This document shows, piece after piece, positions 25,743 to 40,485 of a DNA stretch of 47,372 nt (its first letter is position 1; every line of letters begins with the position of its first letter). The notes beneath the pieces were generated by a model that did not search any database, was not told where the DNA came from, and saw only the letters and a program-made list of their open reading frames with translations. Made by a program: the position numbers and the translations under genes. Origin of the DNA: Eledone cirrhosa (Eukaryota); NCBI GenBank assembly GCA_964016885.1, contig CAXHJY010000367.1, forward strand, positions 1 to 47,372. Reading direction: 5' to 3'.

Positions 25743-27456
25743 ATACAAACATAAATTATCGAGATTCGCATTTCGGCCCACGAAATAACGAAAAACAACC
25801 TCCGAGATGTAAGGCAAGTGCTCAAAGATTCAGATGAACCAGACCTATAACAAACGTTAAAGGCCAAACACACTGAGACGATGGTTAAACAATCATTTGC
25901 ATAGCCAAAAAAAAACGATCAAGTAATTCGGGTATTGAAAATTTACCGGGACCCCTGGAAGGTTGGTAAAATCCAGTATATGGGTTTCTACGGCTCCTAA
26001 ATCAAGTACCGTCCGCTTACATAAATAATGTCTGGCTTCTGGTAAGATGATTGAACAAGGAAGCCACTTTCTCAATAGGTTTTAGTTCAATGTTAATACA
26101 AGGACTGACTATTGCTGACCCCACGTGGGGATCGGCAAGGGAGGCAATCCCTATATCAGGCGAATGAATTCAGTTGTGTATATTTTTGCACGAATGCAAA
26201 AACATCACAAATCGAATAGAGTTCTCAACAGAAGGGTTAAAATTAACATAAGCTATTCATCAGTCAATAGAATCAACTATAAAATCAAGAAAATTAACTG
26301 GTCAATAGCTAGAGTCTGGAGAATAATACAAACATAAATTATCGAGATTCGCATTTCGGCCCACAAAATAACGAAAAACAACCTCCGAGATGTGCGGCAA
26401 GTGCTCAATGATTCAGATGAACCAGAGCTATAACAAACGTTAAAGGCCAAACACACTGAGACGATGGTTAAACGATCATTCGCATTTTGGGAGGAGCCGG
26501 CTGGGGACAATACTGTACCCACATTTTGATTAATGTCCAAGAAACGCCGTGTCATGCTTGTACGACTCCAATGCAGATATACAAACTTTAACTTCACATT
26601 ATTTTTCTCAAATCCTTCTACACACAAACCTTGTACGACTCCAATGCAGATATACAAACTTTAACTTCACATTATTTTTCTCAAATCCTTCTACACACAA
26701 ACCTTAATAATTTTTCTCTTCGTTAATTTTGAAATTGCCACAATACTTATCAACATACACCTTTTTGACGTTAGAATATTCATCCACAATTATTATTTTT
26801 TCTCTCTATCTTCATACATAAACACCCTTTCTTTCCTCGTAAATATTTTTCCCTTCGTTAATTTTCAAATTCTTTTAATTTATACATTATCTTCCAACGG
26901 TTCTCAACCTCTCTATGTAAAACAATATATCTTTTCTCAGTTATAAAAACTATCTCTTTCTCTCTATCACCCATCTCTCCCTCTCCACCTTCACTCTCAT
27001 CTCCTCCCCCTTTTTTCATCCTTTCCACCCCCCATCCCTAAATAAAATATTTTTTCCTCGTACATATCTTTCCCTTCGTTAATTTTCAAATTCTTTTAAT
27101 TTATACATTATCTTCCAACGGTTTTCAACCTCTCTATGTAAAACAATATATCTTCTCTCAGTTATAAAAACTATCTCTTTCTCTCTATCACCCATCTCTC
27201 CCTCTCATCTCCTCCCCTTTTTCATCCTCCCCCCCCCCTCTCTAAATAAAATATTTTTCCCAATATCACACATCAATCTAAAACCACTTTTCATATGTTG
27301 ATTTAAAACTGCACTATCCACAAGTGTTTTTTAGCCTTCATATCATGTTCTCCTGTTTTATCTGATGAAAACACAAATATTATTGCATGATGATGTTTGT
27401 TTTTGAAATGCGCATAATAAAATACATGAAACTCCTTTAACCATCTTTTGATCTTA
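25743..27456 (+). mobile_element. Decayed Penelope-like element (PLE) 3' region: GIY-YIG endonuclease remnant, repeat-rich 3'UTR/pLTR and hammerhead
   Basis: Frame-broken peptides in the expected order: GY*KF, VSTAPK, EAIPIS, NSVVYIF (from 26167), SNRVLNRRVK, KKINWSIAR, EPEL. These resemble PLE linker/GIY-YIG motifs (NGYP.KF, VP.K, KD.LP, S.VVY.F, T.R.L..R, INSSI..HL, KP.L). A canonical HHR follows at 27354-27424. Internal direct repeats: 25743-25902/26326-26485, a 73-bp dimer at 26557-26705, and a ~220-bp dimer from 26836/27056. Confidence 0.55.
27354..27424 (+). ncRNA. Type I hammerhead ribozyme, family C (PLE-associated)
   Basis: Stem I UGUUUUAU/AUAAAAUA; CUGAUGA 27362-27368; 16-bp stem II (15/16 paired) with GCAU loop; GAAA 27405-27408; palindromic stem III AUGCGCAU; predicted AUA cleavage after 27416. 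Confidence 0.85.
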
Positions 27457-28482
27457 TATATATATATATATATATATATATATATATATATATAGATATA
27501 TATATATATATATATATATATAGAGATATATATATATATATATAGATATATAGATATAGATATATATAGAGATATATATATATATATAGAGATATATATA
27601 TATATATAGAGATATATATATATATATATATAGAGAGAGATATAGAGAGATATATATATAGATATATATATATATATATATATATATATATATATATATA
27701 TATATATATATATATATATAGATATATATATATATATATATATATAGATATATATATATATATATATATATAGATATAGATATATATATATATATATATA
27801 TATATAGATATATATATATATATATATATAGATATATATATATATATATATATATATAGATATAGATATATATATATATAGATATAGATATATATATATA
27901 TATATATATATATAGATATATATATATCTATATATCTATATATATATATATATATATATATATATATAGATATATAGATATATATATAGATATATATCTA
28001 TATATATATATATATATATATATATATATATATATATATATATATATATATATATAGATATATATATCTATATATCTATATATCTATATATATATATATA
28101 TATATATATAGATATATAGATATATATATATATATATATCTATATATATATATATATATATATATATAGATATATAGATAGATATATATATATATATATA
28201 TATATATATATAGATATATATAGATATATATATCTATATATCTATATATCTATATATATATATATATATATATATATATAGATATATAGATATATATATA
28301 GATATATATCTATATATATATATATATATATATATATATATATCTATATATATATATATATATATATATAGATATATATATATATATATATATATATATA
28401 GATATATATATATATATATAGAGATATATATATATATATATAGAGATATATATATATATATCTATATATATATATATATATA
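27457..28482. repeat. (TA)n microsatellite with TAGA/TCTA interruptions
   Basis: Direct inspection. Confidence 0.97.
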
Positions 28483-28518
28483 TATTATTATTATGTAATA
28501 AACAACATAAGGCAATTA

Positions 28519-36638: not shown

Positions 36639-37165
36639 ATAATGTAGGAGGTGAGTTTTATTGTAGTACAATAAAGCAATGCAGATATCGGATAAGAAGC
36701 ACTCTACAGTTTGTGGGACTGGAGTATGCATAATATAAGATCAAAAGATGGTTAAAGGAGTTCCATATATTTTATTATGCGCATTTCAAAAACAAACATC
36801 ATCAAGCAATAATATCTGTGTTTTCATCAGATAAAACAGGAGAACATGATATGAAGGCTAAAAAACACTTGTTGATAGTGCAGTTTTAAATCAACATACG
36901 AAAATGGTTTTAGATTGATGTGTGATATTGGGAAAAATATTTTATCTAGAGAGGGGGGGGAGGATGAAAAGGTAAGGAGACGAGAGGGAGAGATGGGCGA
37001 CAGAGAAAAAGAGATAGTTTCCACAACTGAGAGGAGACATATTTTTTACACAGAGGGGTTGAAAACGCTGGAAGATACTGTATGAATTAAAATTTTGAAA
37101 ATTAACGAAGGGAGGATATGTGCGAGGAAAAAATATTTCATTTAGGGAGGGGGGGTGGAAAGGAA
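36639..37165 (-). mobile_element. PLE pLTR-like HHR cassette (family C), inverted copy 1
   Basis: Diverged reverse-complement homologue of ~27019-27456, extending ~95 bp further at its 3' end. Confidence 0.8.
36768..36838 (-). ncRNA. Type I hammerhead ribozyme, family C
   Basis: Minus strand: UGUUUUAU CUGAUGA aaacacagauauuauu-gcuu-gaugauguuuguuuuu GAAA UGCGC AUA^AUAAAAUA; cleavage at 36776/36775. Confidence 0.85.
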
Positions 37166-39956
37166 TATATATATATATCTATGTATATATATATATATAG
37201 ATATATATATATATATATATACATATATATATATAGATATATATATATATAGATATATATATATATATATATATATAGATATATATATATATATATAGAT
37301 ATATATAGATATATATATATATAGATATATATATATATATATAGATATATAGATATATATATATATATATACATAGATATATATATATATATATATATAT
37401 ATATATATATACATATATATATATACATATATATATATATAGAATATATATACATATATATATATATATATATACATATATATATATATATATATAGATA
37501 TATATACATATATATATATATATATATATACATATATATATATATATATAGAGAGAGATATATATATATATATATATATATATATATATATATAGAGAGA
37601 GAGAGAGAGAGAGAGAGAGAGAGAGAGAGAGAGAGAGACATATATATATATATATATAGAGATATATATATATATATAGATATATATATATATATATAGA
37701 GATATATATATATATATATAGAGATATATATATATATATATAGATATATAGATATATATAGAGAGAGATATATATATAGAGAGAGAGAGAGATATATATA
37801 TATATAGAGATATATATATATATAGAGAGAGATATATATATATATATAGATATATATATATATATATATATATATATAGATATATATATATATAAATAGA
37901 TATATATATATATATAGAGATATATATATATATATATATATATATATAGATATATATATATATATATAGATATATATATATATATAGAGATATATATATA
38001 TATATAGAGATATATATATATATATATAGATATATATATAGATATATATATATATATATAGATATATATATATATATAGAGATATATATATATATATAGA
38101 GATATATATATATATATATAGATATATATATAGATATATATATATATATATAGAGAGATATATATATATATATATAGATATATATATAGATATATATATA
38201 TATATATAGAGATATATATATATATATATATATATAGATATATATATGTATATAGATATATATAGATATATATATATATATAGATATATATATATATAGA
38301 TATATAGATATATATAGATATATATAGATATATATATATATATAGATATATATATATAGATATATAGATATATATATATATATATATATATAGATATATA
38401 TATATAGAGATATATATATATAGATATATATATATATATATAGATATATATATATAGAGATATATATATATAGATATATATATATAGAGATATATATATA
38501 TATATATATATATATAGATATATATATATAGATATATATCATATATATATATATATATATATATATATAGATATATATATATATATATATATATATATAG
38601 ATATATATATATATATATATGTATATATATAGATATAGATATATATATATATATATATATATATATATATATATATATAGATATATATATATATATATAT
38701 ATATATATAGATATATATATATATATATATATATATAGATATAGATATATATATATCTATATATATAGATATAGATATATATATATCTATATATATAGAT
38801 ATAGATATATATATATCTATATATATATCTATATATATATATATATAGATATATATATAGATATATATATATATATATAGATATATATATATATATATAG
38901 ATATATATATATATATAGATATATATATATATATAGATATATATATATATATAGATATATATATATATATAGATATATATATATATATATATATATATAT
39001 ATATATATATATATATATATATATATAGATATATATATAGATATATATATATATATATAGATATATATATATATATATAGATATATATATATATATATAG
39101 ATATATATATATATATAGATATATATATATATATAGATATATATATATATATAGATATATATATATATATATATATATATATATATATATATATATATAT
39201 ATATATATATATATAGATATATATATATATATATATATATATATATATATATAGATATATATATAGATATATATATAGATATATATATAGATATATATAT
39301 AGATATATATATAGATATATATATAGATATATATATAGATATATATATAGATATATATATATATATATATATAGATATATATATAGATATATATATATAG
39401 ATATATATATATAGATATATATATATAGATATATATATATAGATATATATATATAGATATATATATATAGATATATATATATAGATATATATATATAGAT
39501 ATATATATATATATATATATATATATATATATATATATATATATATATATATATATATATATATATAGATATATATATATATATATATATATATAGATAT
39601 ATATATATATAGATATATATATATAGATATATATATATATATATATATATATATATATATATATATATATATATATACAGATATATATATATATAGATAT
39701 GTATATATATAGATATATATATATAGATATAGATATAGATATATATAGATATATATAGATATAGATATATATATATATAGATATAGATAGATATATATAT
39801 ATATATATATATATAGATATAGATATATATATATATATATATATATATATATATATATAGATATATATATATATATATATATATAGATATATATATATAT
39901 ATATATATATATATATATATATATATATATAGATATATATATATATATATATATAG
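37166..39956. repeat. Complex (TA)n/TAGA/(GA)n microsatellite, duplicated at ~40486-45477
   Basis: Shared landmark interruptions in the same order: TCTATGTA start, (GA)n-CA, ACAGAT...GATATGTA. Confidence 0.9.
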
Positions 39957-40485
39957 ATAATGTAGGAGGTGAGTTTATTGTAGTACAATAAAGCAATGCA
40001 GATATCGGATAAGAAGCACTCTACAGTTTGTGGGACTGGAGTATGCATAATATAAGATCAAAAGATGGTTAAAGGAGTTCCATATATTTTATTATGCGCA
40101 TTTCAAAAACAAACATCATCAAGCAATAATATCTGTGTTTTCATCAGATAAAACAGGAGAACATGATATGAAGGCTAAAAAACACTTGTTGATAGTGCAG
40201 TTTTAAATCAACATACGAAAATGGTTTTAGATTGATGTGTGATATTGGGAAAAATATTTTATCTAGAGAGGGGGGGGGGGGATGAAAAGGTAAGGAGACG
40301 AGAGGGAGAGATGGGCGACAGAGAAAAAGAGATAGTTTCCACAACTGAGAGGAGACATATTTTTTACACAGAGGGGTTGAAAACCGCTGGAAGATACTGT
40401 ATGAATTAAAAATTTTGAAAATTAACGAAGGGAGGATATGTGCGAGGAAAAAATATTTCATTTAGGGAGGGGGGGTGGAAAGGAA
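39957..40485 (-). mobile_element. PLE pLTR-like HHR cassette (family C), inverted copy 2
   Basis: Near-identical to 36639-37165, with the same two breakpoints. Confidence 0.8.
40085..40155 (-). ncRNA. Type I hammerhead ribozyme, family C
   Basis: Identical to 36768-36838; cleavage at 40093/40092. Confidence 0.85.

Follow-up and report, generated by a model that had tools for sequence, protein, structure and literature searches.

Non-LTR retrozymes of metazoans are dispersed, non-coding tandem repeats of low GC content whose units each hold a single type I hammerhead, and their mobilisation through Penelope-like elements (PLEs) was proposed (PMC7229834; 10.64898/2026.07.22.740005); in the sections of the literature compared here, this link is proposed but not shown. 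In vitro, the PLE PAc (Poseidon of Anolis) cuts and extends both strands, and two internal start sites of reverse transcription define its tail, according to the parts of PMC11167929 considered. Terminal repeats of Adineta Penelope elements are described, in the corresponding parts of PMC3846280, as functioning in cis when mobilisation occurs in trans. Motif marks of the Hydra clade are given in section 11 of PMC8557442.

Here, we present an analysis of a 47,372-nt contig of Eledone cirrhosa (the window) with hammerhead motifs of three families, A, B and C. With high confidence, the locus can be read as a single long TA array that received four insertions, in which B and C are 5′-truncated ends of two Hydra-type PLEs and A is a non-coding repeat that a Penelope-type enzyme likely mobilises in trans. 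The observations behind this reading are links of B and C to open reading frames (ORFs), two fixed 3′ ends per family, TA junctions, head-to-head arms and a variant common to all A units.

Hammerhead motifs and the TA array

A descriptor scan of the whole window (a core of CUGANGA and GAAA, an NUH site and helices I-III) detected 12 type I hammerhead motifs, all within 27354..40155, while 100 block shuffles of the window gave a mean of 0.02 and a maximum of 1. The original prediction of twelve hammerheads from three families in this interval was recovered exactly, yet the motifs collapse to only four insertion events (A; B; C1; C2 with C3; Table 1). Its further statements held as well: the first 27 kb gave zero descriptor matches, each family occurs in both orientations (A 6+/1-, B 1+/1-, C 1+/2-), and no mutual BLASTN match at E 0.01 was found between the A unit, the B end and the C end, in line with the statement that they share only the catalytic core.

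Table 1. Features of the window (positions of cores are single coordinates).
Feature	Position	Strand	Description
Family E	25748..26485	-	1.3 units of a 581-bp tandem repeat; left-hand arm in a mixed head-to-head structure
Filler	26486..26578		93 nt between E and C1; no match in the loci compared
C1	26579..27459	+	5′-truncated PLE-C 3′ UTR, ends tail-less on (TA)n; hammerhead core at 27362
(TA)n/(TAGA)n array	27455..30569		Target of C1, B and A
B inverted arm	28485..28627	-	Tail-less end, hammerhead core 28571
B tailed arm	28628..28839	+	Tail of ~63 nt, hammerhead core 28687; 99-100% identical to intact PLE-B pLTR
A inverted arm	30569..31000	-	Tail-less end at unit position 432, hammerhead core 30826
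A tandem arm	30972..33802	+	6.1 identical 465-bp units, six hammerheads, tail end at unit position 41
(TA)n/(TAGA)n array	33800..45478		Holds C2 and C3
C2	36644..37165	-	Tailed 3′ end of PLE-C, 5′-truncated; hammerhead core at 36830
C3	39962..40485	-	C2 duplicate, hammerhead core 40147
Family A hammerheads	31146, 31611, 32076, 32541, 33006, 33471	+	CUGAUGA/GUC
Family A hammerhead, inverted copy	30826	-	CUGAUGA/GUC
Family B hammerheads	28687, 28571	+, -	CUGAGGA/GUA
Family C hammerheads	27362, 36830, 40147	+, -, -	CUGAUGA/AUA

The descriptor found the sequence features of a hammerhead in all three families. The Rfam model HH9 matched all seven A copies (E 1.8e-6; 38.9 bits, below the gathering threshold of 52); B and C had no Rfam match among the matches listed (150 of 449), and a separate Rfam search gave no hammerhead match for C. 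In minimum free energy (MFE) folds, A and C form the hammerhead, whereas the fold of B does not. Self-cleavage and circular RNA are predictions. Matches to miRNAs in the TA array all lay below the gathering threshold and were discarded as repeat artefacts.

The copies had been described as embedded in (TA)n/(TAGA)n, which is correct for their ends: 28 of 29 B ends and 36 of 38 C ends lie on (TA)n, compared with 5.8% of random positions, and A ends on (TA)n too. C1, however, contacts the array at its 3′ end only. Their meeting at this locus would reflect the preference of each family for (TA)n in a region that is about 66% TA array (the whole contig about half). Counted per base, four events in 13 kb stand against 0.23 expected (P=1e-4), and the joint presence of the three named families in one such 13-kb stretch is a priori unlikely (P ~8e-4 per stretch). 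With the background scaled to TA content, which presumes a target size linear in array length, 2.0 events are expected (P=0.15); TA content can thus account for the local density, and the special hotspot that had been postulated is not needed. Furthermore, a 13.5-kb TA array at 183-13707 contains zero hammerheads. The cluster is ordinary for this genome, in which about one sixth of 10-kb stretches carry a hammerhead (7 of 39 evenly spaced ones) and about one third a piece of a PLE ORF.

Enrichment for (TA)n at the element ends and co-clustering of the families, both suggested as checks, were both found, the latter being modest: about 2-6-fold at 13-50 kb and undetectable at 5 kb. The distance from A to C is at most 13 kb in 5 of 32 cases (expected: 1.4 under uniform placement, 2.0 under local shifts); for B, A is found no further than 50 kb away in 5 of 18 (expected: ~1). 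Since B flanks are no richer in TA than random (0.087 vs 0.088), TA content leaves part of the co-clustering unexplained. The idea that the contig duplicates a chromosomal locus was rejected, its receptor exon being single-copy.

Families B and C and their coding elements

Family B is the end repeat (pLTR) of an intact 710-aa PLE of putative Hydra type, PLE-B, with the layout pLTR(B)-ORF-3′UTR-B (locus L040). Among the 20 best PLE-B ORF loci, 10 have an unbroken ORF of 709-710 aa, 18 the B end at an identity of at least 97%, and 13 a near-whole tandem pLTR ~120-140 nt before the ATG. The copies are young (98-99% identical, ORFs intact), the unit measures ~4.25 kb (tandem spacing 4,253 bp; 800 exact tail matches) and the two end types lie 63 nt apart.

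Family C, for which a link to a PLE had been suspected, is indeed the end of a second intact PLE. This 809-aa element, PLE-C, shares 38.6% protein identity with PLE-B (BLASTP). The C end is present in 17 of the 20 best PLE-C loci (12 of them with a tandem copy ~50-60 nt before the ATG position), and six of the 20 have a closed ORF of 808-809 aa. PLE-C copies are likewise young (97-98% identical), with a unit of ~3.9 kb (tandem spacing 3,895 bp), 11,294 exact tail matches, end types 86 nt apart and an inverted arm of the same family at 34 of 44 tail ends. Partial tandems, an inverted 5′-truncated arm and a one-sided tail are seen in both B and C. Neither is a retrozyme, a class marked by the lack of a coding parent and by short tandem units: both end intact coding elements.

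Both proteins contain DKT, YRDD, CxCx5C, CxxC and CxH and lack CCHH in the endonuclease (EN); RWK is present in PLE-B and replaced by RWT at the aligned place in PLE-C. Pfam returned a weak RVT_1 match for a piece of PLE-B (E 0.009) and none for the full proteins, and the call as reverse transcriptase (RT) and EN is based on the motifs and on alignment to L086, which matches RVT_1 and GIY-YIG. As in EN+ PLEs, a single ORF (RT and C-terminal GIY-YIG-type EN) is combined with hammerhead-bearing pLTRs. Judged by these motifs and by insertion into (TA)n, another trait of the clade, both elements appear to be of Hydra type, a clade of C-terminal EN+ PLEs.

A decayed PLE had been proposed at 25748-27459. 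Its right part, C1, is PLE-C 3′ UTR (811 nt match L063 at 97.9% identity, and the matching sequence of L057 begins 322 nt past the ORF stop), but there is no RT or EN remnant, and the rest is the filler and the unrelated repeat E. Six-frame translation and tblastn revealed no PLE ORF remnant in this segment, and nine PLE proteins gave no tblastn match to the window at E 0.01. C2 and C3 are one insertion that was duplicated, either in the DNA or in the assembly: they share the truncation point, the interruptions of the flanking TA and the same set of A>G changes over the 402 nt compared, and differ by four single-base indels and one substitution. As 13 of 16 changes in C2 are A>G on the sense strand of the element, the set may represent an ADAR-like scar. 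Editing as a general feature was rejected: neither A nor B showed an excess of A>G, nor did other C copies (0 of 64 arm alignments), and in a separate comparison the window copies alone carried it.

Family A and its arrays

Family A is a young, non-coding retrozyme, dispersed in the genome, with a 465-bp tandem unit, one type I hammerhead per unit, a longest stop-free frame of 64 aa and 2,122 exact tail junctions in the genome. Its insertions are of the PLE type, two-armed with two fixed 3′ ends 74 nt apart, and 24 of 40 A tail ends carry an inverted arm of their own family. In the window, one inverted arm faces a tandem arm of 6.1 units. In stems I and II of the A-lineage hammerheads, 6 of 14 pairs show compensatory changes, a score reached by 0 of 500 shuffles (relatedness not controlled), and 66% of the bases are paired in the circular MFE fold.

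The geometry of A matches that of B and C, such hammerheads have been placed in pLTRs (PMC4209133), and the portion of the 2026 preprint compared derives retrozymes from pLTRs (10.64898/2026.07.22.740005). A could thus be the pLTR of a third, unsampled autonomous PLE, its arrays being pLTR multimers, and such a parent could escape searches which scored the best 28-40 candidates. We regard this as improbable: the arrays comprise up to 13 units and are closed on themselves, and an upstream ORF is absent from every sampled locus of four A subfamilies (~62-100% identity). No ORF was found colinear upstream of the A arm in 20+30+30 loci (overlapping loci included) or 5′ of 40 position-ordered A tail ends. 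A search for a parent through older relatives likewise led to non-coding repeats, namely a 467-bp subfamily and a further family (1,500 pattern matches; 30 loci examined). Spread or growth of the A arrays in the DNA itself and not through RNA, by unequal exchange, duplication or assembly error in long TA arrays, might be suggested by the duplicated C2/C3 and by a 47-kb contig of which about one half is TA array. It is very improbable in view of arrays on many chromosomes that combine variable 5′ joints and two opposed arms with 3′ ends that are fixed and lie on TA, and of private variants running through both arms (A75G, an A>G change, in 7/7 units of the window; T128G in 12/12 covering units of L079).

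Family A retains its place as a likely PLE passenger, moved in trans by a Penelope-type enzyme. It has no sequence match to PLE-B, PLE-C or the Neptune-like PLE-D, so that the PLE-B or PLE-C enzyme could still move it. The 40 position-ordered A loci contain no joint to a PLE arm that would point to a helper. Elsewhere, A meets a Neptune-like ORF head-to-head (L090), an older A relative follows such an ORF (L038), and A-lineage 5′ ends also adjoin LINE pieces (L084, L144).

Proposed insertion mechanism, mixed joints and known systems

The 3′ ends and tails, whose comparison had been suggested, proved to be two-ended in all three families, with the tail spacings given above. Under the favoured reading, a PLE endonuclease would nick both (TA)n strands, and each DNA end would prime reverse transcription at one of two internal RNA start sites, the 63-86 nt between them forming the tail. 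Both cDNA copies would then stop early and be joined head-to-head. For A, reverse transcription probably went round a single monomer several times or copied a single homogeneous multimer. No terminal sequence common to A, B, C and E was detected at E 0.01 apart from 15 nt of the C tail that match the reverse strand of the PLE-B 5′ UTR (E 0.002). By eye, an AGAG/AAGTG word is seen 20-33 nt into the tails of A, B and C.

Repeat E is non-coding (longest stop-free frame 101 aa) and has a fixed 3′ end on (TA)n. It contains CUGAUGA at 26263 within no complete hammerhead; the descriptor found none in the window or in 19 loci, nor did Rfam match a ribozyme. Lacking a hammerhead per unit, E does not qualify as a non-LTR retrozyme. 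In the window it is joined head-to-head to the unrelated C1, and the last 22 nt of the filler belong to a 73-bp direct duplication (26557-26705) crossing the junction. Similar joints connect E to an arm of PLE-D (L236), of the A lineage (L232) and of another hammerhead family (L334), which makes 4 mixed joints in ~42 E copies examined, window included; further mixed head-to-head joints between families occur in L061, L086 and L090. It is possible that 25748-27459 is a two-RNA insertion, in which E supplies one arm and a tail-less end of PLE-C its counterpart. The general proposal that a Penelope-type enzyme at both ends of one (TA)n cut can copy two unrelated RNAs, across families and clades, is put forward tentatively, as an idea more doubtful than probable. 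If true, there would be a real, occasional ecosystem of shared machinery, testable in the published in vitro system.

These joints, together with the same target, the same two-end architecture and the modest co-clustering, also speak for the original prediction of one TA-targeting PLE machinery that carries A, B and C, each an independent ribozyme parasite, into a hotspot. Nevertheless, among 84 A and C tail ends taken in order of position, none (0 of 84) has a direct joint to another known family's arm. B and C are pLTRs of their own autonomous elements with separate intact, young ORFs, only 39% identical to each other; for two of the three families this is an outcome named in advance as contrary to the idea, which consequently fails for them. 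It has very little probability as a whole; of the predicted helper/parasite system, the non-coding, passenger-like A survives, while B and C as independent parasites do not.

The overall system is largely known. In the parts of the sources compared, the 465-bp unit of A stands beside retrozyme units of 170-400 (PMC7229834) and 51-972 (10.64898/2026.07.22.740005); two-armed arrays with two fixed ends, direct footprints of the PLE type, are not described for retrozymes there. Xenopus retrozyme families have a homologous pLTR in the preprint sections considered (10.64898/2026.07.22.740005), whereas none was found for A. According to the portions of PMC8557442 used, Hydra-clade elements are generally shorter than 3 kb (a typical, not a strict, length), which PLE-B and PLE-C exceed, and have tails of 30-40 nt, compared with 63 nt in B and 86 nt in C; the high copy number of both elements and, in PLE-C, RWT in the place of RWK as well as a stretch rich in asparagine ahead of the EN also deviate. 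In the openly accessible main-text literature that was searched, we found no report of mixed-family PLE arms or ADAR-scarred PLE copies. The Adineta elements share head-to-head arms, a one-sided tail and asparagine-rich ORF inserts; the passages of PMC3846280 compared ascribe inversions to self-priming and do not describe arms from two unrelated families. For PAc, the sections of PMC11167929 considered report two start sites bracketing the tail, resembling the two end types here, and insertion for which hammerhead cleavage is dispensable; PAc belongs to a different clade from PLE-B and PLE-C and was assayed with its own RNA only. In practical terms, the cluster provides the proteins and RNA ends of two Hydra-type PLEs, both young and intact, together with a retrozyme that is very young and has mapped start sites. 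With this material it can be tested by which PLE animal retrozymes are moved and whether the two arms of one insertion can derive from different RNAs.

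Hammerheads of the window and their insertion events

A type I descriptor scan of the whole window recovered 12 hammerheads, seven of family A, two of family B and three of family C, reproducing the places, strands, cores and triplets read from the sequence beforehand. None lay in the first 27 kb, in agreement with the original reading, and block shuffles of the window (n=100) contained on average 0.02 motifs. The observation as a whole is confirmed. As had been stated, the families share only the core, with no detectable sequence likeness outside it; A copies match Rfam with scores below the gathering score. 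At least ten more hammerhead types with distinct stems II and III occur in loci L031-L330 of the same genome (assembly size 3.0 Gb).

The 12 motifs represent four insertion events. A private A>G change is present in all seven A units of the window and absent from 20 other loci. The copies C2 and C3 have an identical 5′ truncation and identical interruptions of the flanking TA array ((TA)n/(TAGA)n) and differ by one substitution and four single-base indels; they are one insertion, duplicated along with about 3.3 kb of array, whether in the genome itself or through assembly.

Features of the window
Feature	Position	Strand	Description
Broken LINE-type RT piece	5442-6980	+	Pfam RVT_1; inside TA array 183-13707
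Broken LINE-type RT piece	11166-11406	-	Pfam RVT_1; inverted copy of the 3′ end of the first piece at 11166
Host receptor exon	18067-19400	-	single-copy coding stretch, Pfam ANF_receptor (E 3e-7)
E	25748-26485	-	581-bp non-coding tandem repeat, one fixed end on (TA)n
C1	ends at 27459		tail-less
B	28485-28839		one inverted pair
A inverted arm	30569-31000	-	joined head-to-head to A tandem arm
A tandem arm	30972-33802	+	6.1 identical 465-bp units
C2	36644-37165		A>G-scarred copy
C3	39962-40485		duplicate of C2
Broken LINE-type RT piece	45478-47372	-	Pfam RVT_1

Of the 16 substitutions that set C2 apart from the majority of the other C copies, 13 are A>G on the element sense strand (11 of them private), against one T>C (P=1.2e-4). 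Reverse transcription of RNA edited from A to I by ADAR leaves A>G changes, and the scar is the pattern that such a process would leave. This ADAR-like cluster was fixed in the copy before its duplication. It is a single event; none of 64 other C arm alignments shows a similar scar.

Two Penelope-like elements ending in B and C

Family B is the end of an intact Penelope-like element (PLE-B). In locus L040, a B end is followed by an ORF, a microsatellite-rich 3′ UTR with a second, decayed hammerhead, B and (TA)n. Among the best 20 genomic matches to the L040 protein, the 709-710-aa ORF is unbroken in 10, the B end is present at ≥97% in 18, and a near-whole tandem terminal repeat (pLTR) lies about 120-140 nt before the start codon in 13. 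In this set (L190-L209; see L192:1501-3630), nine of the 20 copies lose the frame at a common poly-C tract between the reverse transcriptase (RT) and endonuclease (EN) domains, and L191 shortly past it; in their 3′ UTR a decayed hammerhead (CUGAAGA) lies upstream of the intact one. The genome contains 800 exact matches to the B tail.

Family C is the end of a second element, PLE-C. The predicted link to a PLE was borne out at L051, L055 and L057, where the C 3′ UTR is colinear with sequence coding for RT-EN; the best 20 PLE-C matches include six closed ORFs of 808-809 aa and 17 C ends, and the exact tail occurs 11,294 times. With intact ORFs in both elements and a protein identity of 38.6%, the central claim of one machinery for A, B and C fails for B and C, so that the original interpretation stands only in part. 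No PLE coding sequence was found in the window, where the supposed decayed element consists of the C 3′ UTR and the unrelated repeat E.

In the PLE-C ORF (L219:931-3357), about 80 aa rich in asparagine lie between the thumb and the EN linker, similar to N-rich inserts reported from Penelope ORFs of Adineta (PMC3846280). One 15-nt word from the tail of C (window 36667-36681 region), possibly a recognition element, recurs reverse-complemented in the PLE-B 5′ UTR (L192), and a nearly identical word is present at the end of a further hammerhead family (L333).

Family A and the inverted arms

Family A is non-coding, with a longest stop-free frame of 64 aa, and is probably a passenger. Its arrays reach 13 units at about 99.6% identity on many chromosomes, with 2,122 exact tail-on-TA junctions including a 467-bp subfamily. 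Older relatives, at about 62% identity, are built in the same way, and compensating paired changes occur in the hammerhead stems of the lineage, relatedness being uncontrolled. The ends of A arms fall at two fixed positions, a tail end and a tail-less end, which are separated by 74 nt (B 63 nt, C 86 nt); such a two-end signature has been explained in vitro by RT starts at two internal sites, with both strands being extended (PMC11167929). No ORF was found upstream of A arms in the loci sampled, and A does not match any of three PLE families. Given these observations and the PLE-type signature, the helper of A is probably a PLE. As possible hints, the short helix III of A resembles that of a family at L086, which we take to be Neptune-like, partly from its Cx2-5CxxC linker, and a short word in the A tail resembles Hydra families.

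A tail-less end usually lies opposite a tail end of its own family. This holds for 46 of the 65 tail-less ends that abut TA in A, B and C, while 16 have no partner end in the stretch examined and three face something else; own-family inverted arms were present at 24/40 A and 34/44 C tail ends in position-ordered samples. The tail-less C1 is joined head-to-head to E through 93 nt without TA. E has 3,122 first-look candidates in the genome, mostly single-armed; it contains CUGAUGA, and searches for a complete hammerhead or an Rfam ribozyme in it were negative. Foreign inverted arms also adjoin E in L236, L232 and L334 (the last recognised by eye), giving 4 of about 42 copies examined (22 including the window, plus 20 with two duplicates). 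Further mixed head-to-head joints connect the Neptune-like PLE-D to a hammerhead arm of Hydra type (L086:8575-9922), to another Neptune-like family (L061:2701) and to A (L090:9385). Deletion between neighbouring insertions can produce mixed arms, and their origin by insertion of two RNAs together appears unlikely. Among the families compared, no foreign partner was found at any of the 84 tail ends of A and C sampled in order of position, which counts against a general role of mixed arms.

Target preference, clustering and known elements

(TA)5 follows within 20 nt at 28/29 B ends and 36/38 C ends, compared to 5.8% of random positions; the one remaining B end continues into its ORF. The flanks of A are TA-rich (0.30 vs 0.09), those of B are not. 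Co-clustering of the families amounts to a modest excess at larger distances: on contig C1 of the assembly, A lies within 13 kb of C in 5/32 cases (expected 1.4 under uniform placement, 2.0 under local shifts) and B within 50 kb of A in 5/18 (about one expected), but no excess exists at 5 kb (1/32, 0/18); B versus C comprises five cases only. In the window, the 13-kb cluster stretch is 66% TA array, compared to 7.5% across 39 10-kb stretches taken at even intervals, of which seven contain a hammerhead and 13 a PLE ORF piece. Four events are far more than the per-base expectation of 0.23 but not more than the TA-scaled 2.0 (P=0.15; six for the whole window). A common preference for (TA)n together with some regional effect is enough to account for the cluster.

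The kinds of element in this cluster are already known, and the individual families, which may be listed in published supplements, are added members. Hammerheads within pLTRs (PMC4209133), the tandem, inverted and tailed arrangement of PLEs and their targeting of TA (PMC8557442) as well as retrozymes as PLE passengers (PMC7229834; 10.64898/2026.07.22.740005) have been described. Both PLE-B and PLE-C proteins carry DKT, YRDD, CxCx5C, CxxC and CxH, with RWK in the former and RWT in the latter. These marks resemble those of the Hydra clade, for which canonical hammerheads and insertion into (TA)n are reported (PMC8557442, section 11); the units are longer than typical of the clade, and the motifs suggest that both elements belong to it.
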